The translations under genes were made by a program, and so were the position numbers. 64,000 nt of DNA from a virus (taxonomy: Duplodnaviria; Heunggongvirae; Uroviricota; Caudoviricetes), in the IMG/VR virus record IMGVR_UViG_3300046500_000231, positions 10,070-74,069 of that record. One strand, given 5' to 3'. Within the stretch, counting starts at the first letter, position 1, and each line of letters begins with the position of its first letter. The notes under the pieces were generated by a model. That model was given only the letters and a program-made list of their open reading frames with translations, was not told the DNA's origin and did no database searches. Positions 2,812-64,000 of the stretch are shown here, piece after piece.

Positions 2812-3719
2812 CAGGCGGCTCCAACCGTGCGGTAGAGGGTCAAGGGTGCATCGACCGGCTGGACGTCGAATTCGAGCAGATGAATGCGATCCGGCAGTTC
2901 ACGGCCAAAGTCGGGGTTCTGGTAGACGCCATAGAGGGGGCTTGCAAACACCAACTGCTGGATCTGCTTGAGGAGCCAGCCCGGTGCGTAGCCGTCGATG
3001 CGTGCCCGCGCGTCAAAGCGCTTGTTGCCCGACTTCTCCCGACTGGAGTTGCGGAAATAGAAGTCGCGCATCTCCTTGATGCACTTCTCCCGCACGGCTG
3101 CCGGCATCGCCTCGAGCTCCTCCATCACGCCCACGTAATCGGAGGGGATCGCATCGAACCAGCGGCGGAAAAACACGAGACCCGCCTCGTATTTCTGCGA
3201 CGGCTCGGGTTTGACAAAGCGCACGCCGGCCTTGGCCGCGAACGGGTTGAACTTGCTCATCGAGGACTGGAACTCCACGATGCGCGCCCCGCTCATGCGC
3301 ATCATGAGGTTCTGCATCCGGTAGGCAATCCCCGCGCCCCGATACATGGTGTCGAGCACCAGGCGCGAGTTCGTGGTCGCGTTGTCGTTGATCCAGTTCA
3401 GGCGGTATTTGTTGATGAGCTTCGAGTCGAGCCCACCCACGTTCGGCCGCAGGTGCGTGAACGCCTTGTTGCGCCCGCTCGAGATCGCCGAGGAAACCGT
3501 CATCACCCCAACGCCGATCGTCTGCCCGCGCAACACGCACCGGTAGAACTTGGGGCCAAACGGCAGGTTCTCCGCCTTGTAGTGGAGCTCGTGCAAGAGA
3601 TCCCAGTCCGCCTTGGTGCCGCGCTCGACGTAAATCTCGGGCAAGAGCGACAGTGTGTGGGCGGTGGGCGGTGCCGATCGTTCGATCAGCACATCGGCGT
3701 TGTCGGTGATGATGGTCAT
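2811..3719 (-). CDS. hypothetical protein, possible GNAT-fold acetyltransferase
   Basis: 302 aa. RGAGIA resembles the GNAT acetyl-CoA motif. Weak. Confidence 0.35.
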   Translation of the reverse strand: MTIITDNADVLIERSAPPTAHTLSLLPEIYVERGTKADWDLLHELHYKAENLPFGPKFYRCVLRGQTIGVGVMTVSSAISSGRNKAFTHLRPNVGGLDSKLINKYRLNWINDNATTNSRLVLDTMYRGAGIAYRMQNLMMRMSGARIVEFQSSMSKFNPFAAKAGVRFVKPEPSQKYEAGLVFFRRWFDAIPSDYVGVMEELEAMPAAVREKCIKEMRDFYFRNSSREKSGNKRFDARARIDGYAPGWLLKQIQQLVFASPLYGVYQNPDFGRELPDRIHLLEFDVQPVDAPLTLYRTVGAA

Positions 3720-4567: not shown

Positions 4568-4918
4568 TCAGAACTCCAGTTTGATTGAGGTTTCAGCCAG
4601 GCCCAGGTCGCGGAAATACTCGACCAGGGCTTCTTCGGTGCGATCGCCGTTAAAGCGGCCGCGGGGAACACCTGCTTCGATCGTGATAACGGTGGGCACC
4701 GCGCGCACGCCAAAGAGCCCCGCGAGTTCGCGCTCGACCGATGCGTCGACGATGGCAAGGGTGAAACCCCAGTCGTTGGCGAGCTTCGAGAGCTTGGGCT
4801 TGAGCGTGCCGCAGGGGCCGCACCATGGTGCGGTGAATGCGACTACGACCGGCGCCTCGTTGGACTTCTGCGTCACGGCGAGGTCGAACGTGTGGGCGGT
4901 GGGGTTAATGACCGGCAT
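4568..4918 (-). CDS. thioredoxin
   Basis: WCGPC active-site motif. Start at MPVINP. Confidence 0.8.
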   Translation of the reverse strand: MPVINPTAHTFDLAVTQKSNEAPVVVAFTAPWCGPCGTLKPKLSKLANDWGFTLAIVDASVERELAGLFGVRAVPTVITIEAGVPRGRFNGDRTEEALVEYFRDLGLAETSIKLEF

Positions 4919-5570
4919 GCTTGAAACTCCTGTATTGCGTATGAGCGCGCACCGGTCGCGTGAAAGCATCTTCGATGCTCCACCCGGACTCCAGCCTGCA
5001 GCGCAGTGTGTTGAGATTGATCCCGAACTCTTCAGCCCAGAGCGACATAGATTGCGTGCGCCCTCTGAATTCGATGAGTCGGTTTGTTGCCTTGTTGTTC
5101 TGGTTGACCTTGGCGGTCACCCAGCGGCAGTTGCTCGGGCTGTAGCCCTGGTCGTTTTTCTCACGATCAAGCTCAGCGCCAGGAAACGGCACCGGACCCA
5201 TGTCGCGCAAGAACGTCTCAAAAGACGTGATCCACGCGTCGCAGACCGTGATACCTCGACCGCCGTATCGCTTGAAGCGCGAATCCTTCGGGTTTGTGCA
5301 ACGGGCGAGCATGTTCGTCCACACGCGAAACTCCGGCGTGTCGGACTTTCCATGCGTGCGATTCTTGCGACCCATTACCTCCGCACGTCGCTTCATCGCA
5401 CAGCCGCACGACGTGACCATCTTTCGACGCAATAGCTGGCCGATGACGACGAGTTTCGCGCCGCAATCACATGCGCAGTCCCAAGCGGCGCGACCATTGA
5501 CGGAGGCGGCTCGCGCCGTGACCACCAGATCGCCAAAACGCTTGCCATGAAGGTCAATCATTGCCGACAT
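4905..5570 (-). CDS. HNH/AP2-like putative endonuclease or DNA-binding protein
   Basis: Cys-rich N-terminus. TPEFRVWTNMLARCTNP...YGGRGITVCDAW pattern typical of phage HNH/AP2-family proteins. Confidence 0.5.
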   Translation of the reverse strand: MSAMIDLHGKRFGDLVVTARAASVNGRAAWDCACDCGAKLVVIGQLLRRKMVTSCGCAMKRRAEVMGRKNRTHGKSDTPEFRVWTNMLARCTNPKDSRFKRYGGRGITVCDAWITSFETFLRDMGPVPFPGAELDREKNDQGYSPSNCRWVTAKVNQNNKATNRLIEFRGRTQSMSLWAEEFGINLNTLRCRLESGWSIEDAFTRPVRAHTQYRSFKHAGH

Positions 5571-6841: not shown

Positions 6842-7483
6842 TTATGCGCAGACAGCCTTGGCGTGAGCCACAAAAGCGTCTGCGCCCGTGAGTCCGGTCT
6901 GTTCTTCGATCAGCGCCATGAACCGCGCGAGGTGCTTTTCATCGCGCCCCGCCACCGCTTTGAAGCCCAGCGCCTTTTCGAGCTTCACTTCCCGCGCGTC
7001 GGTCTTCTCGACCGTTTTGGCGGTCTCTGCAGCCTGCTCGCGCACTTCTGCGTCCAGATCCTCCACGAACGGTTCGTCGTTGATGACCGACAAGTCCGCC
7101 GTCATGAAGTCGAGCTCCTTGGCGTCGAAGATGCTGCCGAGGTCAAAGTCGAGACTGGCGAGTTCTTCCTGCAGGATGCGCGCGTCGATCTCGGAGAGCG
7201 CAACCCTGTTATCGGCCAGGCGCAGCGCCCGCGCCTGCTCTTTGGTGAGGTCATCGCGCACCACCACCGGCACGTGGGTCTGACCGAGCGAGAGCGCGGC
7301 AAGACGCCGGCCGTGGCCTGCGATGATGGTGCCGTCGGCTTCCGCGACGATCGCCGTGTTCCAGCCGAACTCCGTGATCGAGGCGGCGATCTTCTTGATC
7401 TGCGCCTCGTCGTGGGTCTTGGCGTTCAGTTCATACGGCTTGAGCCACTCGACGGGCTTGAGCGTGGGTTTGAATTCGTTCAT
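6842..7483 (-). CDS. ParB-like nuclease domain protein
   Basis: IIAGHGRRLAA ParB N-terminal-domain motif. Confidence 0.7.
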   Translation of the reverse strand: MNEFKPTLKPVEWLKPYELNAKTHDEAQIKKIAASITEFGWNTAIVAEADGTIIAGHGRRLAALSLGQTHVPVVVRDDLTKEQARALRLADNRVALSEIDARILQEELASLDFDLGSIFDAKELDFMTADLSVINDEPFVEDLDAEVREQAAETAKTVEKTDAREVKLEKALGFKAVAGRDEKHLARFMALIEEQTGLTGADAFVAHAKAVCA

Positions 7484-7672: not shown

Positions 7673-8080
7673 TCAAACCGTGATCCAGTCATCGGCGAAA
7701 ATCTCGCTCTGCGTCGGCGCATACACGCGCGGCTCATCGCCCTCGCGCGTCAGCACAATGCGTCCGTTCTGCACGCTCAAGGTGCTCAGGCTCCAGCCAA
7801 CGCGCTTGACCCGCAGACCGTGCTTGATCGCCTCGAGCGCCATGCTGAAGCTCAGCCCGACCGCCTTGCGATAGGCCGCGTCAAAGACGTCCTTGGGGCT
7901 CCACGAGACGTAGCCCGCATGCTTCGCGTGATTCGATGCGCCGCCATCCATGTATTCGACGAGATAGCCGGCGTCGAGCGGGTCTTCGTTTGCCGGAACC
8001 GTCCAGCCGCGATAGTCGTTGTATTCGCCGCGTGTCATGGGCTTGGCGAAAATGACTTTGGTGCCGATGTATCGAATCAT
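7673..8080 (-). CDS. DUF2829-domain protein (Tad2-like) with conserved N-terminal YIGTK domain
   Basis: C-terminal half LSFSMALEAIKHGLRVKRVGW...PTQSEIFADDWITV fits the DUF2829 consensus. N-terminal half YIGTK...PMTR..YNDYRGW...GYLVEY...WSPKDVF. Confidence 0.6.
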   Translation of the reverse strand: MIRYIGTKVIFAKPMTRGEYNDYRGWTVPANEDPLDAGYLVEYMDGGASNHAKHAGYVSWSPKDVFDAAYRKAVGLSFSMALEAIKHGLRVKRVGWSLSTLSVQNGRIVLTREGDEPRVYAPTQSEIFADDWITV

Positions 8081-8730
8081 GATTTCGGGGAGAGAAGGTG
8101 AACGAGCGCTGCGCCCGCGTTGGAAAGCGAGTCGTCTTCGGTGAAGCGCTGCGCCTTCATGGTCTTTTCGATCAGGTCCGTGATGGCGCCGACGTCCTCG
8201 ACGGGCACCTTGAAGCGCATGATCTGGTGCGTCTGCACCACGGCTTCCTTGGGTAACGGGGTTGGGGCCGCGTCATCGTCCGGTATATCTAAGTCATCCA
8301 GTTCTATATTTACGGATGAAAAGATTGAAGCGAAGTCGGCGTCCGTGTAGGGCAAGAAAGTCGACAGGTCTTCCGGCGTGCTCATGCCCTCGAGCAACTC
8401 GGCCAAGCGAAGCGTGTCGTCGTTGCCATAGCGGGCGTTATCCACCAGGCCGATCTCTTTGGCCTTGTTGTCGTCGATTGCGCCCACGTTCATCACGGGC
8501 ACTTTGTCCAGACCGAGGCGGATTGCAGCGTCGCGTCGATGCGCGCCACCGAGGATCTGATAGCTGCCGTCGGCGAGCGTGCGCACGATGATCGGCTTGA
8601 ACATGCCGAGGCGCTTCAGAGACGCCTCGATCTTGGCCTCCTCCTCCGGGCTGCACACGTTGGTGTTCCACGGATTGGGCTTGAGAGCGGAAGGCGACAG
8701 TTCGAGGGTTTCGATGTGGGGCTTACCCAT
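8077..8730 (-). CDS. ParB-like nuclease domain protein
   Basis: LKPNPWNTN and ILGGAHRRDAAIRLG motifs. Confidence 0.7.
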   Translation of the reverse strand: MGKPHIETLELSPSALKPNPWNTNVCSPEEEAKIEASLKRLGMFKPIIVRTLADGSYQILGGAHRRDAAIRLGLDKVPVMNVGAIDDNKAKEIGLVDNARYGNDDTLRLAELLEGMSTPEDLSTFLPYTDADFASIFSSVNIELDDLDIPDDDAAPTPLPKEAVVQTHQIMRFKVPVEDVGAITDLIEKTMKAQRFTEDDSLSNAGAALVHLLSPKS

Positions 8731-8796: not shown

Positions 8797-10368
8797 ATGG
8801 CAACTCGGAACATGGCTACGATCACCCTCGCCTACAACGCGACCACCGCAAAGCTCGTGGAGACCGACCGGGCGCTCAAATTGGAAGTGCAGAAGCTCGT
8901 CTCCTACAAGGTCTCGGGCGCCGAGAACACCCTGCCCTTCAAAACGGGCGGCTGGGACGGCCGCAGCTCCTTCTTCGACTTCCGCAAAGGCACCTTCCCC
9001 GCCGGCTTCGTGCATTTCGTGGCCGCAGGCCTGCGCCGAGCCGGGCACACCGTGCGCTTTGTCGCCAAAGAGGCGCCCGCACCGCTTGGGCCCCTCAACC
9101 CGAAGATCGACAGCTTCCCGGAAGACCCCCGCTACGACTACCAGATGGAGACGGTCAACCGGCTGGTGAAGCACCGCCAGATCATTGCCCAGTTGGCAAC
9201 CGGGGCCGGGAAGTCACGGGTTGCGCGTCTCGCCTTCGCCCGTATCCGCCGCCCGACGCTCTTTCTCACGACCCGCTCGATCCTCATGTATCAGATGAAA
9301 GACGCGTTCGAGGAGCTGGGAGTGAAGTGCTCGGTGCTGGGCGACGGACAGTTCGGAACGGTCACAGTCGGTGCCGACGGTGAAGAACGACACTCGGTGA
9401 AGATGATGAGCGTTGGCATGGTTCAGACGCTCGTAGCGCGTCTTGCCGAACCGTGCCCGGACGATGACGTCGAGAAACAAAACGAGCAAATCCGCATTCG
9501 CAACAAGACGATCGCGCTCCTGGAGAAATTCGAGTTCGTGATCGGTGAGGAGGCACACGAGGCGAGCGGCAATAGCTACTTTGAGATCCTCAAGCACTGC
9601 AAGAACGCGCACTACCGCCTGGCGCTCACCGCCACGCCCTTCATGAAGGACGATGAGGAATCGAACATGCGGCTCATGGCCGCGTTCGGCCCGATCGGCA
9701 TCAAGGTGAGCGAGAAGATGCTGATCGACCGCGGCATCTACGCCAAGCCGTTCTTCAAGTTCATCCAGCTCGAGCACAAGCCCGCCAAACTCTTTCGCGG
9801 CACGACCTGGCAGGCCGCCTACCGGATCGGCATCGTCGACAACGTGGAACGCAACGCCAAGATCGTGTTCGAGGCGCGTCGCGGGGCGGCGCTCAAGCAG
9901 CCGGTGATGATTCTTGTGCAGCAGACGCGGCACGGTGAGCTTTTGCGGGAGCAACTGGCGGCCAAAGGCGTGCGCGTGGAGTTCCTGCAGGGCGAGAACA
10001 ACGCAAAGGAGCGAAAAGCGGCGCTGGGGCGACTTCGGCAGCGCGAAACCGAGGTGCTGATCGGCACGACCATCATGGACGTCGGTGTGGACGTGCCGGC
10101 GATCGGGCTGGTGATTCTCGCCGGCGGTGGGAAGGCGCAAGTGGCGCTACGTCAGCGCATTGGCCGCGGTGCGCGCGAGAAGAAGAAAGGCCCGAACTGC
10201 TTTTTCGTGGTCGACTTCGACGATCCGTGGAATTCCCACACGAAAGAGCACGCTTTGGCGCGCCGTGCGATCGTGGAATCGACGCCGGGCTTTGTCGAAA
10301 ACATCCTCCCGCCGGGCAAGGACTTCGATTTCGTGGGCCTGGGCTTTGCGACTCGCAAGGCAGCGTGA
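8797..10368 (+). CDS. SF2 DEAD/DEAH-box family helicase
   Basis: Walker A ATGAGKS, DEAH-like GEEAHE, helicase C-terminal motifs (TAT, QRIGRGAR). Confidence 0.8.
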   Translation: MATRNMATITLAYNATTAKLVETDRALKLEVQKLVSYKVSGAENTLPFKTGGWDGRSSFFDFRKGTFPAGFVHFVAAGLRRAGHTVRFVAKEAPAPLGPLNPKIDSFPEDPRYDYQMETVNRLVKHRQIIAQLATGAGKSRVARLAFARIRRPTLFLTTRSILMYQMKDAFEELGVKCSVLGDGQFGTVTVGADGEERHSVKMMSVGMVQTLVARLAEPCPDDDVEKQNEQIRIRNKTIALLEKFEFVIGEEAHEASGNSYFEILKHCKNAHYRLALTATPFMKDDEESNMRLMAAFGPIGIKVSEKMLIDRGIYAKPFFKFIQLEHKPAKLFRGTTWQAAYRIGIVDNVERNAKIVFEARRGAALKQPVMILVQQTRHGELLREQLAAKGVRVEFLQGENNAKERKAALGRLRQRETEVLIGTTIMDVGVDVPAIGLVILAGGGKAQVALRQRIGRGAREKKKGPNCFFVVDFDDPWNSHTKEHALARRAIVESTPGFVENILPPGKDFDFVGLGFATRKAA

Positions 10369-11942: not shown

Positions 11943-12470
11943 ATGACGGAAGAATGGCGTAATGTCGTAGGTTTTGAAGGACTTTATCAGGTGTCGGACC
12001 TCGGACGCGTGAAGCGCCTCGATCACCATAGAGACGGTCGGCATCTGTGCGAGAAGATTTTGAAGGCCACGCCAACCGGCGATGGTCATCTGCAGGTCGG
12101 TCTGGGTGCGGACGGCGCCAAGGTGCGCAAATTCACAGTCCATTCTCTCGTGCTGCTCGCGTTCGTCGGACCTCGCCCCTTTGGGGCGCAGGGCCGGCAT
12201 CTGGACGACGACCCAGCAAATAATCGGCTGGACAACTTGGCATGGGGAACGCCCAAAGACAACGCGGCGGATCGGGGCAAGAATAATCCTGGATACCATC
12301 GCTCCCCATCGCGGCGTTTGGAGATTGCGGAGGCGATCAGTCTGCAGCCAGATATGAGCTACGCTGAAATGGCGGAGTTGGGAGAGCGATTCGGGGTGTG
12401 TGCGAAGACCGTCAGGCGGACTCGGGACGCGTGGCAAGCTGGAAAGATCAGCTTGGGCGCCAAAGTATAA
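11943..12470 (+). CDS. HNH homing endonuclease (NUMOD4 + HNH_3)
   Basis: WRNVVGFEGLYQVSDLGRVKRL NUMOD4. HSLVLLAFVGPRP...DDDPANNRLDNLAWGTPKDN HNH. Confidence 0.8.
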   Translation: MTEEWRNVVGFEGLYQVSDLGRVKRLDHHRDGRHLCEKILKATPTGDGHLQVGLGADGAKVRKFTVHSLVLLAFVGPRPFGAQGRHLDDDPANNRLDNLAWGTPKDNAADRGKNNPGYHRSPSRRLEIAEAISLQPDMSYAEMAELGERFGVCAKTVRRTRDAWQAGKISLGAKV

Positions 12471-12592
12471 GGAAGTGCTCGGCCGGGATACCGGGAAATA
12501 TAAGGAAGGGTCATTTTCCTCATGGGCCGAGGAAGGCAGGGCCTTCGACGCGCGCGAGAATCTCTAGGAGATTGACTTCTCGCGCGGTCCCT

Positions 12593-12778
12593 CTACTGCA
12601 CGCGTCGCACGTTCACGCTCGCGACTGCACGCAGCGTCGCGTTCGTTTCTGCACGCTTGCGAATCTCGTTCAAGCGTCGCGCATAGTTGCGTTCGGTGCT
12701 TTCGATCAGATACGCGACAGAACCGAAAGCGAGAATTGCAGAGACGATAGCGAAAAGAGAGAACGGTTCGAAGTGCAT
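12593..12778 (-). CDS. small membrane protein
   Basis: 61 aa, one TM segment. Confidence 0.35.
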   Translation of the reverse strand: MHFEPFSLFAIVSAILAFGSVAYLIESTERNYARRLNEIRKRAETNATLRAVASVNVRRVQ

Positions 12779-12787
12779 GTTTTATCT

Positions 12788-12805
12788 CAGTCAGTTTTGA
12801 CTGTT
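12788..12805. promoter_or_regulatory. conserved phage motif copy (CAGTCAGTTTTGACTGTT) abutting parS
   Basis: Exact core motif. Its 3' end overlaps the parS site. Confidence 0.6.
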
Positions 12806-12817
12806 TCACGTGAAACA
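12802..12817. promoter_or_regulatory. parS site (TGTTTCACGTGAAACA)
   Basis: 16/16 match to the canonical ParB-binding parS palindrome. Confidence 0.75.
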
Positions 12818-12873
12818 GTCATGCGGTTAGAAACGTGCGTGCTACAGAGAGAATACTAGCACGTATTTTAAAG

Positions 12874-12887
12874 CAACGTGCAAGTAT
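12874..12887. repeat. left arm of island-flanking inverted repeat (AACGTGCAAGTATT)
   Basis: Reverse complement found at 14592-14605. Confidence 0.5.
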
Positions 12888-13058
12888 TTTCGTTCACGTA
12901 AGCGTAGCACTTCTGTTCGAACGTGAAACCGTGACCGTGAACAATGCGAGTAACGATGATATACATGATTAGACTTGATTAGAGACGTTTTGAGCGATTC
13001 TCTCTCTGTGCGGTGCGTCTGAGAGTGCAGCGCGCACAGAGAGACGGTTAGAGACGGT

Positions 13059-13592
13059 TTAAGCGATGCAGTGTTTCAGATTGTCGCGTTCGTCATCGTA
13101 GAATTGACCGTCGAATTGCTGCATATGCAAGTCACGCAGCATTGCGAGCGTTTCACGCTGCACGCGTTCGTCATCGCTCAGAAGCAACGAAAGCAAGTCA
13201 AGCGAGATAGTCAGATTACCGTGTGTAGCAGAATCCGCAGTCTCAATGTTAGTCACGCGTGCATCGAACGTTGCTTCGTTGTCATCGTTGATACTGACAG
13301 TCGAAGCAATGTATTTAACGTTGATTGCGCTATCGTGCGCGCGTGCTTTCAGAGTGTCGATACATACGGACCGAAACACGCTTTCGCACGTCTGCGACGG
13401 ACTATCAGCGCTTTCGTATTCTGCAATCATGACAAGTGCAGAGCGACGCACCGCTTCTGACAACGACAAGTCAGAATGTCGATACAGTTCGCTTTGTTCG
13501 TTCTCGCTAAACGCGATGCACTCATACGAACCGCGTTCGTTCGTTTCGATAATGACGGTCAAATCGTCATCGGTGATTTTCGAGATTTGCAT
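13059..13592 (-). CDS. acidic hypothetical protein (low-GC island)
   Basis: 177 aa. Lower-GC codon usage than the surrounding genome. Confidence 0.45.
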   Translation of the reverse strand: MQISKITDDDLTVIIETNERGSYECIAFSENEQSELYRHSDLSLSEAVRRSALVMIAEYESADSPSQTCESVFRSVCIDTLKARAHDSAINVKYIASTVSINDDNEATFDARVTNIETADSATHGNLTISLDLLSLLLSDDERVQRETLAMLRDLHMQQFDGQFYDDERDNLKHCIA

Positions 13593-13622
13593 GATAAACC
13601 GTGTGTGAGTGTGATTAGTGAG

Positions 13623-13638
13623 TGTTTCACGTGAAACA
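13623..13638. promoter_or_regulatory. parS site (TGTTTCACGTGAAACA)
   Basis: Second perfect canonical parS, followed by a half motif TTGACTGTT. Confidence 0.75.
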
Positions 13639-13659
13639 CTCACTATTGACTGTTACGCG

Positions 13660-14469
13660 TTAGACTGCTTTAAACATCGCTTGCACCGCTTGTGCAGCTT
13701 TCGAGTCAGTGAGCGTCATCGAGTCATCTTTGCGCGACTTGATGACGTTGCAGACGTTCAGAAAGCGCATTGCTTGACGCGTGCTACTCGCTTGCGTGCT
13801 CGCGGTTGACGGTTCACACAGCTTGAACGAGCGCACCGCTTGACTTTGCATGTCTTCCGTGAATACGACTTTGTTAGACAACGAGATTTGAGAACCGCGG
13901 TTCGACAACGATTCGAGTTTGACGAGATTGCGCATAATCGCTTGCGTATAACCGTCGAAAACCGACGTCATACCGGTTGCGAGCGCAAACAGCGATTTGC
14001 GCACTTTCTGTGCAGCGTAAATCGCAATGTAGTCATACGAGTTTTTATCTGTCGTTGCATATGCACGTGCAAGCGCGTCAAAATCAACTTCAAGCGCGAT
14101 GCACTTCTCGATAGCGAGCATTGCATTCGTTCCGCTGAGCGCGCGCAATTCTGCGTGCATGTTCTTTGCAAAGTTCGCGTTCGGTGCATGTTCGATTCGA
14201 ACCGCGATAGCATCGCAAAGTTGCTTTTGCGCTTCTGCTGCTTGCTCGCGCAGCGTCTTTGCGCTTGCTTCTGCGTTTTCAAGCTCTTTCGCTGCTGCTT
14301 CGCGCGCTGCTGCTTCTGCTGCTTCTGCTTCTGCTTTGCGCGCTGCTGCTGCTTCTGCTTTCGCTGCGTCATTCTGAGCACGCGACGCTTTGCGACGCGC
14401 TTCTTTCTGCGCTGCTTTAGCTGCTGCGTTCAGTTCGTTTGCTGCGTTCGTGTTAGCTGCGTTCGTCAT
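13660..14469 (-). CDS. Ala/Glu-rich coiled-coil protein (KfrA-like?)
   Basis: N-terminal AEAAAARKAEAEAAEAAAREAAAKELE coiled-coil. Sits in the low-GC island next to the parS sites. Confidence 0.4.
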   Translation of the reverse strand: MTNAANTNAANELNAAAKAAQKEARRKASRAQNDAAKAEAAAARKAEAEAAEAAAREAAAKELENAEASAKTLREQAAEAQKQLCDAIAVRIEHAPNANFAKNMHAELRALSGTNAMLAIEKCIALEVDFDALARAYATTDKNSYDYIAIYAAQKVRKSLFALATGMTSVFDGYTQAIMRNLVKLESLSNRGSQISLSNKVVFTEDMQSQAVRSFKLCEPSTASTQASSTRQAMRFLNVCNVIKSRKDDSMTLTDSKAAQAVQAMFKAV

Positions 14470-14591
14470 TTTTCTTTCTCTCTAGTGTGTGTCTCGCTTG
14501 CACTGTGCAGCGAGTGATTGAATTATGCACGTCTTATTTCTCACGTGCAATGTTTTTCTACGTGCAGGTTTAGAGTGCATTCTCTAAAAAG

Positions 14592-14605
14592 AATACTTGC
14601 ACGTT
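14592..14605. repeat. right arm of island-flanking inverted repeat
   Basis: AATACTTGCACGTT is the reverse complement of 12874-12887. Confidence 0.5.
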
Positions 14606-15035
14606 CGAAATAACACGTGCTATAGTTCTCTCACTGCAACACGAAACGGAGAAAACGAAACGACACACACAAGAGCGAGAATCGACCGATGACTGAAACC
14701 GAGCGCGCAACGCGAGCGCAGCGGACCGAAAACGGAACGCATGCGACGCAGACGCGAAACACGGTGCGCACGCAGTGAGACTGCGCGACACGTGACGCTC
14801 GAACCGCGCGCGATGCGCGACGCACGCGCTTGTGCGGCGCTTTTACCGCGCAGGCGAAACCCCTAGGTCGATTCCCGCGCCCACGGGTCAAACTCCCTAT
14901 CAGTGTCGGCCGAGGCTCCCGTTTGGGTGGCGCCCAAGGGCATCGGCCTAGCGCAAAATCCACGGCCGCGCCTAAAACTCCCAATGAGTGTCGGCGGCGG
15001 CTCCCGTTTCCAGCAAGCCGCCGCGCCCTGCTCCC

Positions 15036-15230
15036 TCAATACAGCTCCATCATGCCCACGCGCCCATTGGTGCGGATCTGACGGCGCAGGTGAGCAATCT
15101 CCGCCTCTTCCTGCTGCTCCTCGAGCCAGTCGATGAGTTCGTGCGGCTTGGCGGCGCGGTGCTGGTGGTCCGCGGCTTCGATCGAGGCTTCAACGGCGAT
15201 GTGGGTGTGTGCGGCGGTCTTCATAGTCAT
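15036..15230 (-). CDS. small hypothetical protein
   Basis: MTMKTAAHTHIAVEAS... Confidence 0.4.
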   Translation of the reverse strand: MTMKTAAHTHIAVEASIEAADHQHRAAKPHELIDWLEEQQEEAEIAHLRRQIRTNGRVGMMELY

Positions 15231-15241
15231 TTTTGAGTGTT
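15224..15241. promoter_or_regulatory. motif copy inside a gene overlap (TAGTCATTTTTGAGTGTT)
   Basis: Overlaps the ATGACTATGAAG start context. Confidence 0.4.
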
Positions 15242-15363
15242 GGTGCGGTTGCGGGTAAGAAACAGGAGCAAATCGACGAACTTCATCCATGCGTAGGTCA
15301 CACCGGCGCCCAGGAGGGCGATCAGCAGGACCGCGACGATGAGCTGCGCGGTGTCTTGGGTCA
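15228..15363 (-). CDS. small TM protein (45 aa, below the ORF-track cutoff)
   Basis: MTQDTAQLIVAVLLIALLGAGVTYAWMKF... Stop overlaps the next ATG. Confidence 0.4.
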
Positions 15364-15367
15364 TGGG

Positions 15368-15670
15368 TCAGTCATCCAGCTCGAACGTGAGGCCGACGAT
15401 CGATTCCGGGTTCAGGATGCGATCTTCGCGGGTGTTCTCGTCGCTCAGCACAAGGTGCAGGACGTCGATCATGTCCTGCGAGAACGTTTCGATCACGCGC
15501 ACCGTGCCCTGACCGATGCAGTTCAGGTCGTCGGCAGACACGACGCGCACATAGAACAGCGGACCCTGCGTGAAGTGGACGACATACATGCGCTCTTGGG
15601 CGCTGTATTCCGCGATTTGGGCGTGAATGTAGCTCATGATGTTTCGCTTCGTTGTTGTGTGAGCAGTCAT
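15368..15670 (-). CDS. hypothetical protein
   Basis: 100-aa ORF. Confidence 0.45.
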   Translation of the reverse strand: MTAHTTTKRNIMSYIHAQIAEYSAQERMYVVHFTQGPLFYVRVVSADDLNCIGQGTVRVIETFSQDMIDVLHLVLSDENTREDRILNPESIVGLTFELDD

Positions 15671-15704
15671 TGTCTCGACTGCTCGCAGGACATGTGGTGG
15701 GCAG

Positions 15705-16031
15705 TTACAAGGCGATCGGATTCTTCTCGGGATCGAGGTGATCGTTCAGGTCGAAATACAGGGCGCGCAGGCAGGCATCGTTGCAGGCGGTGATATCGGC
15801 ATCGAAACAGGAGCGATGGATCTCGTAAACCGTGGAGTCGGCACCGTGCGTCTGCTGTTGCAGGGCGACGAATTCGAGCGTTTCCGGATCGCAGGTGATC
15901 AGAAAGAGGCTGAACGTCGAGTCGAGAAAGAGGTAGGCGGCGCGCTCAAACGGGGCGTCAGAGCGGTTGGCTTCGTAATACGCACGCAGATCAGCAATCG
16001 CAAGGGTGGTCGGTTTCTTCGTCGTTTTCAT
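15705..16031 (-). CDS. hypothetical protein
   Basis: Start at MKTTKKPTT. Confidence 0.45.
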   Translation of the reverse strand: MKTTKKPTTLAIADLRAYYEANRSDAPFERAAYLFLDSTFSLFLITCDPETLEFVALQQQTHGADSTVYEIHRSCFDADITACNDACLRALYFDLNDHLDPEKNPIAL

Positions 16032-16622
16032 CGCGTTTCTCGCGTTGTTTGAGAGTGATTGCATTGTGCAGCACATACTCAGGAATGACTGCGGCTATCG
16101 GCATGGGAGCGCGCACTCCGCCGGCCTAGGCCTTCTCCCTTGGGCACGCCCTGCTCCCTACCCCTACCGAGGCCTAGGCGCTCTCCCTCGGGCACACGCC
16201 TTGGGTATCGGCCTAAAGAGCCCAAGGACACTCCCGCTCAAATTTCCTATGGGTGTCGGGCGCCGCTCCCGTTTCCTGCTCCCGAGGGGTAAGCCCTAGG
16301 CGTGAGGAGTGGGTGCGGGTAAAACTTGGGATATGTGTCGGCGTCGGCTGCCGTTTCCTCGAGCTTCCCCACGCACGCGCACGGGGTTTGGTTTTGGGTT
16401 TTACTAGACACATCCGATGAGGAACCCTAGTGGAAGAATAAGCCCCCCTACCCCCCACAGACCTATAATCCCTGTGTGTGAGAGATAGAGAGCCCTATTC
16501 GTCCCCAAGGCACCCACATCGGAGCTATCCGCGTATGGCAACCCAACAGGTAAGAACAAGCCCCCAGAAAAGAAGCGACTCCCGACGCCAAACACTCGTC
16601 GGCAAACAATGTGAGGGAATCA

Positions 16623-16640
16623 TAGTCAGTGGTGACTGTT
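16623..16640. promoter_or_regulatory. motif copy (TAGTCAGTGGTGACTGTT)
   Basis: In the non-coding repeat region downstream of the GYGEVW cluster. Confidence 0.5.
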
Positions 16641-16764
16641 GCGTCAAGCGGCAGTTTGGGGTGGGTAGCGTGGGAAGTGTAAGAGTTGGGAGTTGCGGGA
16701 CATTTTTCGTCGCTCCATAGCTATCCCCACACCACACGCGCCCTTTCCTCTCTCCCCTACGGGC

Positions 16765-17073
16765 CTACCACACCTCCCCATACCCCTGAGCGTGATCCTT
16801 CTGCGCATCTTCATCAGCCAGCAGCCTCTTCCGTAGCGTCTTGAGTGGGCTCTCGAACTGGAGATCCCAGATATCCAGCTCCTTGAATCCCGCTCCCTGC
16901 AGTCCGACGATCGAGTCTCCTGCCTTGAGGGTGTTGCGGATCGTCTCGTATCTGTGGGCTAGGTCAGTTTCTTGGATCCAGCCGGTGCCAGTGTCTCCCG
17001 TGCTCTCGCTCTTTACGGTGACGGGGTATCGGCCGGCGCTGCTTTTCTCGCCTATGATCTTGAACTGCGCCAT
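16765..17073 (-). CDS. GYGEVW-tail family protein (paralogue 3)
   Basis: Ends ...AQGYGEVW. Confidence 0.5.
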   Translation of the reverse strand: MAQFKIIGEKSSAGRYPVTVKSESTGDTGTGWIQETDLAHRYETIRNTLKAGDSIVGLQGAGFKELDIWDLQFESPLKTLRKRLLADEDAQKDHAQGYGEVW

Positions 17074-17361
17074 CTACCAGACCTCCCCGTATCCCTGCAC
17101 CTGGTCCTTCCCGCTGTCGAGCTTCCCTGGTCTGCCCATCCCCACGAAGCTGGTTTTGATCCTCTCCAGCGGGTAGTCTGGAAAGGACGTGCCGAGCATC
17201 GCCTTGACCGGATTGTCGTAGCCTTCGAATCCGTATCGTATGGCTACGTCCTCGGTTAGCGCGTAGCCTTCCTTGACCAGTGCGCTGCCGTGTTCCCAGT
17301 AGATGACCCTGAGCCAGTCCTCGCTCACAGCGCCGTCGATCTTGATTGTTGCCATCACCAC
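17074..17361 (-). CDS. GYGEVW-tail family protein (paralogue 2)
   Basis: Ends ...VQGYGEVW. Confidence 0.5.
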   Translation of the reverse strand: MVMATIKIDGAVSEDWLRVIYWEHGSALVKEGYALTEDVAIRYGFEGYDNPVKAMLGTSFPDYPLERIKTSFVGMGRPGKLDSGKDQVQGYGEVW

Positions 17362-17597
17362 ACCTCTCCATATCCGGTCGCTTCGTCCTTCTCGGTGTAG
17401 GGTGTGTCGTCAGGGCCGGTCAGGGCGAACTTGAGCCATTCGTGATCGAAGTTCCCGAGAAGCTGACCTGCCTCAATCGGTGCCGGATATTTGCTCTGGA
17501 GCCAGGTTGCCGGCATGGTGTGTTGCTCGTGCGTCTTGGCGATGTGAATGGTGATCCAGGAGTCGGTGACTTCCAAGACCTCTACGTCGATTAGCAT
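17355..17597 (-). CDS. GYGEVW-tail family protein (paralogue 1)
   Basis: Ends ...ATGYGEVW. Confidence 0.5.
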   Translation of the reverse strand: MLIDVEVLEVTDSWITIHIAKTHEQHTMPATWLQSKYPAPIEAGQLLGNFDHEWLKFALTGPDDTPYTEKDEATGYGEVW

Positions 17598-40529: not shown

Positions 40530-40547
40530 TAGTCAGTTTTGACTATT
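40530..40547. promoter_or_regulatory. motif copy (TAGTCAGTTTTGACTATT)
   Basis: ~75 bp upstream of the gene start at 40455. Confidence 0.6.
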
Positions 40548-62808: not shown

Positions 62809-64000
62809 TTAGCCGATCAGCAGACCGCGCAGCTCCTTCATCACGCGCGCCGGCAGTTCGCTCACGTCATTGAGGACCATGTGGCGCTTGTAGAAGCGGG
62901 TGACTTCGGTCGACTCGATGCCGATGCCAACGACGCGCACGCCCGCCTTCTCGATCTTCTCCACCGTGTCCTTCAGGTGGGTGCGCAGCACCGCGCCACC
63001 GGCGTAGGCTGCAGGCGCTCCGTCCGAGAGGACGATCATGATCTTGCCCGCCTCGCGTCGGCTCATCAGGCGTCGCGCGGCAATCTCAATGGACTCGCCA
63101 TCGACGTTGTTGTTGAGCGTCGCCACATTGGGCAGCCAGGCGAAGCGATTGCGCACTTCGGTCGAGCCCATGCGCTCGTTATACGACTTGAGGATCGGCA
63201 TGTAGAGGCTTTCGATGCGCGAGAACGACCTGCCCCCAAGCAGCTTCGACTCCTCCGCGAGCTTCTCCCGGTCGACGATTTCGCCAGTGGTGAAGCAGAT
63301 CACCTCGCACTTGATGCCCAGGCGATCGAGGACCGAGGCGAGCGCGTAGCCCGCTTTGGCCGCGGTGTGGATCTTCGAGCCCATCATCGAACCGGATTTG
63401 TCAATCACGAGCTCCACCGCAACGTCCTTGCTCGTCGATTCGTGCTTTTTACGGAATACGCGCGTGTCACCTACCGCCAAGCGTGAGAGATTGCCCGCGT
63501 GCAGCCGACCGCTGCGCCGGCCGTTCTCCCACACCGACAGTGAGCGGGCGGAAATGGCGCGCTCCAGATCCTTTTGCAGCGGACCCACCATGTGGTCGAC
63601 GTCATCGGCCATGCGCTTGGTCATTTCGGGCTTGAAGCCCGAGCCCACGTGCAGTGGCTCGATGCGATCGTGGTCTTTGGTGTAGACGAGGTAGTCGGAG
63701 TGCTTGGCGGTTTCGACCGCTTCGTTGGTAATGATGCGGCTCATGGCATCGTCGAACCCGTTGGCTGTCTCCTTGTCGAGCGCTTCGGCAAATCCGTCCG
63801 AGCTGCCATCGGTCGAGTCCTCGCCGTCGTCACCGTCATCGGATTCGCCAGCACCGCCCTCGCCTTCTTCGTCGGTCTCCTCGCCTTCGTCGCCTTCTTC
63901 GCCCTCCTCGCCTTCTTCGCCCTCCTCGCCCTTGCCTTCGTCCTCCTCTTCGGACTTTTCGCTGCTCGACTTGCCGGCGCCGGACGTGCCTTCCTCATCC
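62809..64000 (-). CDS. CobT-like VWA-domain protein (partial, N-terminus beyond window)
   Basis: MIDAS DKSGSM. In-frame acidic Asp/Glu-rich region continues to the window edge without a stop. Confidence 0.6.
   Translation of the reverse strand, partial: DEEGTSGAGKSSSEKSEEEDEGKGEEGEEGEEGEEGDEGEETDEEGEGGAGESDDGDDGEDSTDGSSDGFAEALDKETANGFDDAMSRIITNEAVETAKHSDYLVYTKDHDRIEPLHVGSGFKPEMTKRMADDVDHMVGPLQKDLERAISARSLSVWENGRRSGRLHAGNLSRLAVGDTRVFRKKHESTSKDVAVELVIDKSGSMMGSKIHTAAKAGYALASVLDRLGIKCEVICFTTGEIVDREKLAEESKLLGGRSFSRIESLYMPILKSYNERMGSTEVRNRFAWLPNVATLNNNVDGESIEIAARRLMSRREAGKIMIVLSDGAPAAYAGGAVLRTHLKDTVEKIEKAGVRVVGIGIESTEVTRFYKRHMVLNDVSELPARVMKELRGLLIG

Follow-up and report, generated by a model that had tools for sequence, protein, structure and literature searches.

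Two chromosomal-type parS sites in a phage control region

We analysed a 64,000-nucleotide stretch of tailed-phage DNA (Caudoviricetes; positions 10,070 to 74,069 of IMG/VR record IMGVR_UViG_3300046500_000231), referred to below as the window, and within it a control region that carries two copies of parS, the centromere sequence to which the bacterial chromosome-partitioning protein ParB binds. The genes of this region are encoded on the minus strand. They include a family-wide gene for a 269-aa Ala/Glu-rich protein (13660-14469), a fast-evolving accessory gene for a 177-aa acidic protein with a pI of 4.4 (13059-13592), and a gene for a 61-aa single-pass membrane protein (12593-12778), the conserved downstream partner of the locus, which is called the transmembrane (TM) gene here.

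The exact sequence TGTTTCACGTGAAACA is present at positions 12802-12817 (parS-1) and again at 13623-13638 (parS-2), the latter 21 nt past the stop codon of the 269-aa gene. Both are 16/16 matches to the 16-bp palindrome of the chromosomal type, tGTTNCACGTGAAACa, and no further match to TGTTTCACGTGAAACA was found in the 64 kb when up to three mismatches were allowed (shuffle mean 0.2). This sequence is identical to parSc1, the chromosome-1 centromere of Burkholderia cenocepacia, and to the universal chromosomal parS (PMC5450999). An earlier reading of the window, made from its letters alone and called the sequence-only reading below, had reported two perfect parS sites on either side of a single acidic gene. 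This is borne out, as both sites are exact and the gene at 13059-13592 lies between them. There is no cognate parAB operon in cis, as no canonical ParB or ParA is encoded within the 64 kb.

Each site forms the core of a longer palindrome. parS-1 is centred in a perfect palindrome of 24 bp, TGAC-parS-GTCA (12798-12821), located in the 5' leader of the TM gene, and parS-2 in one of 30 bp, TAGTGAG-parS-CTCACTA (13616-13645). When transcribed, the former would fold into a hairpin of -15.4 kcal/mol and the latter into an intercistronic hairpin of -20.3 kcal/mol. The sites are 10 to 40 nt before the ribosome-binding site or start codon of the next gene, amid dense promoter/operator modules.

The 16-bp core is conserved beyond the needs of the hairpin

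To place the sites in context, we retrieved the loci surrounding 24 metagenomic homologues of the 269-aa protein (designated L001, L006 and so on). In nine lineages, the window included, the 269-aa gene is followed by the 16-mer about 20 nt beyond its stop codon, which is the orthologous position. It is exact in the window, L001, L006, L162, L166 and L011, and it carries a single substitution in L010 (A16G), L015 (T5C) and L164 (G11T). The parS-1 site, 5' of the membrane-protein gene, is common to the window and L001 (position 7383 of L001). At the nine orthologous positions, identity is 98% in the core, as opposed to 71% and 56% in the 30-nt flanks, and the protein encoded next to it is merely 56 to 79% identical among the relatives. 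This is the pattern of purifying selection on the specific sequence of the 16-mer, beyond what a palindrome or a hairpin requires.

Distant family members carry no parS at this locus, nor do at least four close ones (L008/L136, L137, L138 and L163). In nearly all of the parS-less relatives the spot is taken by an unrelated stem-loop, which in many cases is GC-rich and precedes a T-run. The position after the 269-aa gene is a conserved intercistronic hairpin or attenuator, and in one sub-clade the core of this hairpin turned into the parS sequence and remained so. Since distant relatives fill this position with an unrelated stem-loop, the hairpin alone does not explain why this particular 16-mer was kept.

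The outer arms of the palindromes behave differently from the core. Compensatory changes keep them paired, with G:C replaced by C:G beside the core and with C:G, A:U or G:C further out. The covariation score of the arms was 0.14, compared with 0.06 in shuffled alignments, and only 1 of 500 shuffles scored as high. RNA hairpins at the parS sites have folding energies of -15 to -23 kcal/mol and z-scores of -3 to -4.3. The arms are accounted for by structure; the invariant core, by contrast, appears to be explained solely by sequence-specific recognition. Compared with an intrinsic (Rho-independent) terminator, in which a stable GC-rich stem-loop precedes a U-tract, the hairpin core is AU-rich and is followed in the window by AAUCAC or AAAACU, and the window's hairpin has no U-tract; in some relatives UUCUCUU or UUUUC follows. 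In several relatives the gene downstream of the hairpin has no promoter of its own, and read-through past the hairpin must therefore occur. An Rfam search over positions 12300-17000 gave no credible match.

Both parS sites overlap a genome-wide motif

A motif of the form (A/T)ACA-GTCA-N4-TGAC-TA(TAAT) occurs in about 20 intergenic copies in the window, with conserved half-sites and a variable 4-nt spacer. Examples start at 1994, 8753, 10386, 11914, 12790, 16625, 27284, 27317, 31421 and 33506, and further ones at 40532, 44485/44512, 49579, 50044, 52942, 54897, 56176 and 62775. Copies often lie between -35-like and -10-like hexamers, or 10 to 40 nt before start codons. The motif is present in relatives too, an Acinetobacter phage-plasmid among them. 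Its role might be that of a phage-specific promoter or operator, or it might form a small RNA hairpin.

Each parS shares 3 bp with a copy of this motif, and the two pairs are arranged in opposite orders. At parS-1 the order is parS first and then the motif (...GAAACA-GTCAAAACTGACT): the copy ACA-GTCA-N4-TGAC-T at 12789-12804 (minus strand) takes its ACA from the last three nucleotides of parS-1 and stops 10 nt short of the TM-gene ATG. The sequence-only reading had noted that the first parS adjoins the genome-wide motif, which agrees with the copy found here. At parS-2 and its orthologues the motif comes first and parS follows (...GTCAAAACTGA[C/G]-TGT...); the window's copy, ACAGTCA-ATAG-TGAG-TGT at 13636-13653 (minus strand), is degenerate and overlaps parS-2 by 3 bp. 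Part of each outer palindrome arm derives from the motif. The juxtaposition suggests a possible interplay between ParB and whatever reads the motif, and this overlap is the main argument for a regulatory role of the sites.

In the copy from Paraburkholderia (L015:6590-6625), the T5C substitution creates another hairpin of 28 nt, GTGGAACAGTCA-aaac-TGACTGTTCCAC, in which the left half of parS pairs with upstream sequence, spanning the genome-wide motif. T5C may thus be driven by structure, besides being a change that ParB tolerates (see below).

The low-GC block is an old early-control locus

The GC content is 0.49 to 0.53 across positions 12501-14500 and about 0.60 elsewhere in the window, so that the block is indeed lower in GC, as previously remarked. 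However, it had also been proposed to be a horizontally acquired island or cassette, and this proposal does not hold. The third-position GC content (GC3) of the 269-aa gene is 0.5 to 0.6, against about 0.8 for the helicase gene, in every relative with or without parS; the low GC is therefore old and not the result of recent acquisition. The locus is syntenic in all relatives, as far as Acinetobacter plasmids. No transposase or recombinase was found among the genes of the block, no target-site duplication is evident in its sequence, and the block as a whole is not polymorphic in the manner of a mobile cassette or an insertion sequence. DNA and protein searches of the block against a cultured-phage collection gave no matches. 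Judging by these features, the supposed island is a long-established locus for early control, conserved and equipped with promoter/operator modules.

Three sigma70-like modules with the pattern TTGCACGT-N10-ACGTGC-TAnnnT were recognised; a generic scan for sigma70 promoters and terminators had missed them, since its rules do not cover their spacing or hexamers. The promoter-like module of the 269-aa gene (14522-14550, minus strand) reads TTGCAC-17-CATAAT and contains the inverted repeat GCACGT-N10-ACGTGC at 14527-14548. A divergent module (14597-14626, plus strand) reads TTGCAC-18-TATAGT, with an operator-like GCACGT-N10-ACGTGC at 14599-14620. The module of the TM gene (12853-12883, minus strand) reads TTGCAC-19-TAGTAT, with an operator-like GCACGT-N11-ACGTGC at 12859-12881. 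Upstream of the TM-gene promoter are direct-repeat boxes, TTCACGG / TTCACGT (12921-12941, minus strand).

These modules account for two features that had been read differently. A perfect 14-bp inverted repeat does exist near the edges of the block, at 12875-12888 and 14592-14605 (the left arm had been placed one base off), but it does not mark boundaries. It is the conserved part, AATACTTGCACGTT, common to the modules at 12853-12883 (left arm) and 14597-14626 (right arm), which are promoter-like, about 30 to 55 nt long, and extend beyond the repeat. ACGTG is likewise enriched in the block (19 copies, 5.6 expected), and 7 of the window's 14 copies of TGCACGT lie there. The boxes had been described as half-site-like, but most of them are accounted for by the three modules, as operator or promoter half-sites, alongside the TTCACG(G/T)T repeats. 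Both the modules and the TTCACG(G/T)T boxes are conserved in parS-less relatives too, and the ACGTG boxes are therefore not parS half-sites.

The 5' leader of the 269-aa gene holds an imperfect palindrome (14493-14514, minus strand); relatives have a palindrome there with a different sequence. Two further stretches near the modules were also seen. Downstream (3') of the TM gene, at about 12440-12592, a repeat block of the form GAAGTCCTAGA..GGCCCTCCCTTCC..(T)CCTTATA(C/T) is present 2 to 4 times; it recurs in L001:7620-7760 and L168:9880-10000, and its conservation extends from the phages of Burkholderiales to the Acinetobacter phage-plasmids. The repeats might be iterons, form a structured RNA, or act as a centromere for proteins of the phage itself. 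On the other side, 3' of the divergent promoter, the conserved non-coding stretch 14630-15036 aligns with L001 and contains A/G-rich boxes of the CGAAAACGG type and two 63-nt repeats (14862-14924 and 14947-15009). Rfam gave no match to this stretch, which may serve as a binding array or encode a non-coding RNA.

Proteins encoded at and near the locus

The 269-aa protein consists of a variable, low-complexity N-terminal helix of about 90 residues and a conserved helical domain that has a winged helix at its C-terminal end. Its FDGYT and STASTQASSTR motifs are invariant, the latter lying in a helix. It had been likened to KfrA, the partition-associated protein of IncP plasmids, with which it does have in common an Ala/Glu-rich long helix and a winged-helix-type DNA-binding module. 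KfrA proteins, however, are defined by a KfrA_N domain, and they bind DNA through their N-terminal part and form a coiled coil with their C-terminal part. The 269-aa protein has no KfrA_N match in Pfam and the reverse order of domains, with the helix N-terminal and the winged helix C-terminal, and its gene is present in all relatives irrespective of parS. The KfrA assignment was consequently rejected. The protein is a candidate autoregulator that might act at the GCACGT-N10/11-ACGTGC operator-like repeats.

The gene between the two parS sites is far less stable. It is missing from several relatives. The C-terminal half alone of its product matches that of the L166 gene (64% identity), and the L001 gene has only its first 21 residues in common with L166 and nothing with the window's 177-aa gene. 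No Pfam or PHROG family was found for the 177-aa protein, and its sole homologue in the databases searched was itself.

Two proteins with a ParB/Srx N-terminal domain are encoded nearby on the minus strand, one of 217 aa (8077-8730) and a second of 213 aa (6842-7483). The sequence-only reading had pointed to them as ParB-like neighbours of the sites. Their N-domains are as described, each with a GxxRR-type arginine patch, but both are core family genes that occur in parS-free relatives as well, and no confident helix-turn-helix (HTH) was seen. Their matches to solved ParB and Noc structures are confined to the N-terminal domain and stop short of the HTH, at about residue 105. The AlphaFold model of the 8077-8730 protein comprises the ParB/Srx domain, a low-confidence acidic linker and a two-helix tail, and it contains no confident HTH (pLDDT 34 to 56 over residues 98-164). 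Foldseek aligned about 135 columns of it with ParB, Noc and KorB, and gave the best relative coverage with PadC, which has no DNA-binding domain. Full-length orthologues of the ParB-like proteins are present in Stenotrophomonas phage BUCTxx99 (39 to 43% identity), and the Acinetobacter phage-plasmid has annotated ParB-family genes at syntenic positions. No parS with up to three mismatches was found in the equivalent regions of either.

A temperate family related to phage-plasmids

The window covers the replication and nucleotide-metabolism half of a siphovirus-type phage of about 113 kb. It encodes a DnaE-type polymerase, ribonucleotide reductase, ThyA, SbcCD, a UvsX-like recombinase, single-stranded DNA-binding protein, RuvC, CobS/CobT-like proteins, a UvsW-type helicase, the two ParB_N proteins, an ABC-type ATPase and HNH endonucleases. 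By similarity of the helicase, its kin are Stenotrophomonas, Xanthomonas, Rhizobium (RHEph10) and Pseudomonas (nickie) phages, with SSU5-type phage-plasmids more distant. The decisive relatives are Acinetobacter plasmids of about 105 to 135 kb, whose DnaE matches the window's from end to end at 59% identity; 153 plasmids encode a distant homologue of the 269-aa protein. The order shared with these plasmids runs through early genes, the winged-helix gene, helicase, ParB-like, Gp49-like, ParB_N, ABC ATPase and terminase, and the Acinetobacter plasmid also carries RepB, ParA, a resolvase-type integrase, an HTH regulator and toxin-antitoxin genes. These Acinetobacter plasmids represent the AB group of phage-plasmids. 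This group is related to SSU5, and RHEph10 fell into its community as well (PMC7969092).

The closest IMG/VR relative with two parS sites is a single contig comprising L001 and L197. Past its CobT-like gene, L197 encodes a type Ib ParA (closest solved structure, ParF), a partner of about 122 aa with a C-terminal ribbon-helix-helix-like (RHH) segment, and CTCAAAACCCGA repeats, together with a CI-like repressor, a second HTH protein and an H-NS-like protein (3105-3683). At the same place L171, L172 and L173 have a tyrosine integrase, an excisionase-like HTH_17 protein and a CI-like repressor. L172 is on the same contig as the single-parS locus L011, and L173 is from the same sample as the parS-less L008. 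The lysogeny module is thus swapped (L197:5300-8400 versus L172:5200-8300, L171:1-3000 and L173:190-3100), with both versions beside the same CI-like repressor. As for membership among phage-plasmids, core synteny with the Acinetobacter elements is present, the ParA/RHH pair is found in L197, the nearest relative whose module is known, and an integrase in other relatives, and the window's own module lies beyond position 64000.

A prophage copy lies inside a 450-kb Paraburkholderia contig, and homologues of the ParB-like core gene occur in multi-Mb Undibacterium and Ralstonia contigs. From these and from the lysogeny modules we conclude that the clade is temperate, that its hosts are Burkholderiales, and that plasmid-type and integrative lysogeny are exchanged within it. 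The window groups with the ParA-type lineage, we infer, by similarity of the 269-aa protein and by the type of membrane-protein gene.

Near the locus, some relatives (L008:7636-8759, L010:1-348, L163:272-1661 and L164:2419-3468) carry cargo that includes MazE/PemK toxin-antitoxin, DUF4145 and pentapeptide-repeat proteins and an SMC_N/AAA_15/DUF2813 (OLD-like) ATPase; such defence- or addiction-type cargo is consistent with a temperate lifestyle. In the window, HNH genes at 4905-5570 and 11943-12470 (the latter with NUMOD4) are inserted among core genes and are likely homing endonucleases. An HNH gene is present at the second of these positions in L010 and L011 and absent in other relatives. 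Tandem small paralogous early genes (16765-17073, 17074-17361 and 17355-17597, minus strand) have products that all end in ...GYGEVW.

What the parS sites may do

On the sequence evidence, the sites are best described as genuine, selectively maintained parS of the chromosomal type, and it is quite probable that host ParB binds them in vivo. The best explanation, to which we give about an even chance, is that the two 16-mers are host-type parS, kept by selection in a temperate Burkholderiales sub-clade so that the host's chromosomal ParB loads onto the phage DNA. ParB-CTP of the host would nucleate at the sites and spread across the few-kb AT-rich control region. The most likely pay-off would be coupling of an episomal phage genome to the chromosome-1 ParABS machinery of the host, either as a plasmid prophage, the likely state for this lineage, or at a pre-integration stage, and the price to the phage of borrowing this machinery would be 16 bp. 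The two transcription units next to the sites would probably be affected as a side effect.

This explanation draws on several observations. The simplest known function of a lone parS is the piggy-back segregation or positioning of an episome, which would fit a plasmid-related family. One chromosomal parS stabilises an unstable plasmid once Par proteins are supplied (review PMC7022226). ParBc1 of B. cenocepacia binds exactly TGTTTCACGTGAAACA, systematic mutagenesis showed that only 1/16 and T5C changes are tolerated, the symmetric change A7T/T10A abolishes ParBc1 binding although the palindrome is preserved, and the natural chromosomal parSc1 repeats are degenerate at positions 5 or 1 (PMC5450999). 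Two of the three phage variants (A16G and T5C) fall at positions tolerated by ParBc1, which is only suggestive with n=3 (about 0.16 by chance). Of the roles listed by the sequence-only reading, a centromere-like function or hijacking of host ParB is thus plausible, as the family is temperate and related to phage-plasmids; that of an acquired cassette is not.

Several points weigh against host-ParB loading for the benefit of segregation. Occupancy by host ParB is an extrapolation from sequence. G11T in L164 is at a position reported as intolerant, and with three variants only, the fit to ParB tolerance is not significant. The two-parS relative (L197/L001) has a complete type Ib partition cassette of its own, and the single-parS lineage is integrative, so that there is no obvious need for piggy-back partition. 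The lysogeny module belonging to the window's phage is outside the stretch, past position 64000. Extra parSc1 on a plasmid causes a ParB-dependent growth delay in B. cenocepacia (PMC5450999), and as such sites slow the growth of Burkholderia, parS could be costly in lysogeny. Finally, the site must be dispensable, as at least four close relatives do without it.

Segregation is not the only use to which host ParB might be put, and we regard local gene control and titration as live explanations next to it. For local control, which we consider rather unlikely, ParB at the sites, or sliding from them, would act as a co-repressor or insulator for the accessory and TM-gene units, through competition with the binder of the ACAGTCA-N4-TGAC motif or through silencing of the flanking promoters. 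The exact 3-bp overlap of both parS with a motif copy, in two orders, and the short distance from the sites to the next gene's start in a promoter-dense region are what such control would lead one to expect; ParB of Pseudomonas aeruginosa represses promoters beside parS3 and parS4 (PMC5521831), and local control would serve integrative and plasmid-type relatives alike. Yet the same genes are managed without parS in close relatives, and it would have to be supposed both that ParB nucleation complexes act as transcription roadblocks here and that the motif has its presumed function. Titration, which seems improbable, would need no phage protein: hundreds of phage parS copies during lytic replication might draw ParBc1 off the chromosome origin, and the phage would benefit from the resulting disturbance of cell division or of chromosome-1 segregation. 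The growth delay caused by plasmid-borne parSc1 is a precedent, and both lysogeny types as well as the patchy, accessory distribution of the sites would be accommodated; but titration leaves the fixed position beside the motif without a reason, one or two sites per genome are few, and a benefit from perturbed segregation is an assumption. We also consider, as a tentative possibility, that the sites represent centromere mimicry as a cis-only phage strategy, in which a temperate phage without a ParB places the host's parS inside regulatory hairpins. The CTP-dependent ParB clamp of the host would then serve as a trans-factor gating early or accessory genes in response to the state of host ParB, or would be soaked up so that host chromosome segregation stalls in the lytic phase.

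The remaining explanations dispense with host ParB, and all are unlikely. It is quite improbable that these are simply the family's intercistronic terminator or RNA-stability hairpins, identical to parS but with no ParB function. Essentially all family members do have a stem-loop here, and the covarying arms and stable RNA folds described above are as expected of such hairpins. However, stems normally drift by compensation, whereas this core is invariant and equal to canonical parS in nine lineages; a random palindrome would equal parS about once in 4^8; a second copy stands at another position in two phages; T5C and A16G break or weaken pairing and yet stay within the parS consensus; and the window's hairpin has no U-tract. 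That the phage's own ParB-like proteins bind the sites, as a partition or packaging system, is highly improbable. Their N-domain with its arginine patch, the Foldseek alignment with ParB, Noc and KorB, and the distance of their genes from the sites (less than 6 kb) speak for it; but the matches to solved ParBs end before the HTH, the model shows no confident DNA-binding domain and is best covered by PadC, and a full-length orthologue (BUCTxx99) or an annotated syntenic gene (Acinetobacter) is found beside parS-free equivalent regions. A mobile cassette bounded by 14-bp terminal inverted repeats is scarcely credible: the lower local GC and the perfect repeat near both edges would suit it, but the low GC3 of the main gene is common to all relatives, the whole locus is syntenic in each of them, Acinetobacter plasmids included, the repeats are conserved cores of longer promoter modules, and neither a transposase or recombinase nor an evident target-site duplication accompanies them.

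If host ParB loading is the correct explanation, a phage with a chromosome-1 site and no ParB would use the host segregation machinery free of charge, possibly at the risk of incompatibility with the host chromosome. This would be a new and very cheap class of phage-host interface, in which 16 bp of DNA takes the place of a protein, and one sequence would double as RNA hairpin and protein-binding site. It would also offer a naturally occurring setting in which to study what a small number of ectopic parS sites does to ParB distribution, SMC loading and segregation, and the centromere type would be a sequence marker that could help in predicting the host or the phage-associated replicon.

Comparison with known systems

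ParABS centromeres are regarded as replicon-private, and the specificity of parS separates the replicons in multipartite Burkholderia genomes. In the full-text literature searched, no description was found of a natural phage with an orphan host-chromosomal parS, although absence there is not proof. An exact-match scan of IMG/VR found TGTTTCACGTGAAACA in at least 120 other viral contigs (L016-L135), where about 10 would be expected by chance on a rough estimate; among the matches listed, 93 are single-site and some contain clusters of four or five. A tblastn search of these contigs with proteins of the present phage's family found no member of that family, and the ParA and ParB queries were too weak to classify them. 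As the number of contigs is well above that expected, orphan chromosomal-type parS may be a broader phenomenon that has gone unexamined.

The 16-bp palindrome is identical to that of the chromosomal ParABS centromere (Burkholderia parSc1 / Bacillus subtilis type), and the T5C and A16G variants are at positions where chromosomal repeats degenerate and ParBc1 is tolerant. The phage sites differ in being far from any parAB operon or oriC, in being present in one or two copies, in lying inside longer hairpin-forming palindromes at an intergenic regulatory position, and in that the window encodes no cognate HTH-containing ParB. The plasmid-prophages P1, P7, N15 and those of mycobacteriophages have private partition systems, with their own ParA, ParB and parS. 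The present phage resembles them in being a temperate member of a plasmid-related family with a centromere-like site and a close relative that encodes ParA, but its site is of the host chromosomal type, and the type Ib cassette of L197, made up of a ParF-like ParA, an RHH partner and CTCAAAACCCGA repeats of its own, bears no relation to the 16-mer.

With the AB/SSU5-related phage-plasmids (Pfeifer et al. 2021) the window has in common its core genes, the small TM gene and the repeat block, in the same order. The hosts of the window's clade, however, are Burkholderiales, the lysogeny module is swapped among its relatives, and the Acinetobacter members have no parS at the locus. Silencing by KorB at OB and by P. 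aeruginosa ParB at parS3 and parS4 offers another likeness, with ParB-family sites beside promoters and possible repression, although no KorB-like protein with a DNA-binding domain was found in the phage, and regulation of this kind would need a host protein. A further parallel is provided by artificial parS-only plasmids of the Lin and Grossman type (review PMC7022226), in which a single chromosomal parS in cis suffices for positioning or stabilisation that depends on host ParAB, as we propose for the phage; those are laboratory constructs, whereas the sites described here belong to a natural phage.

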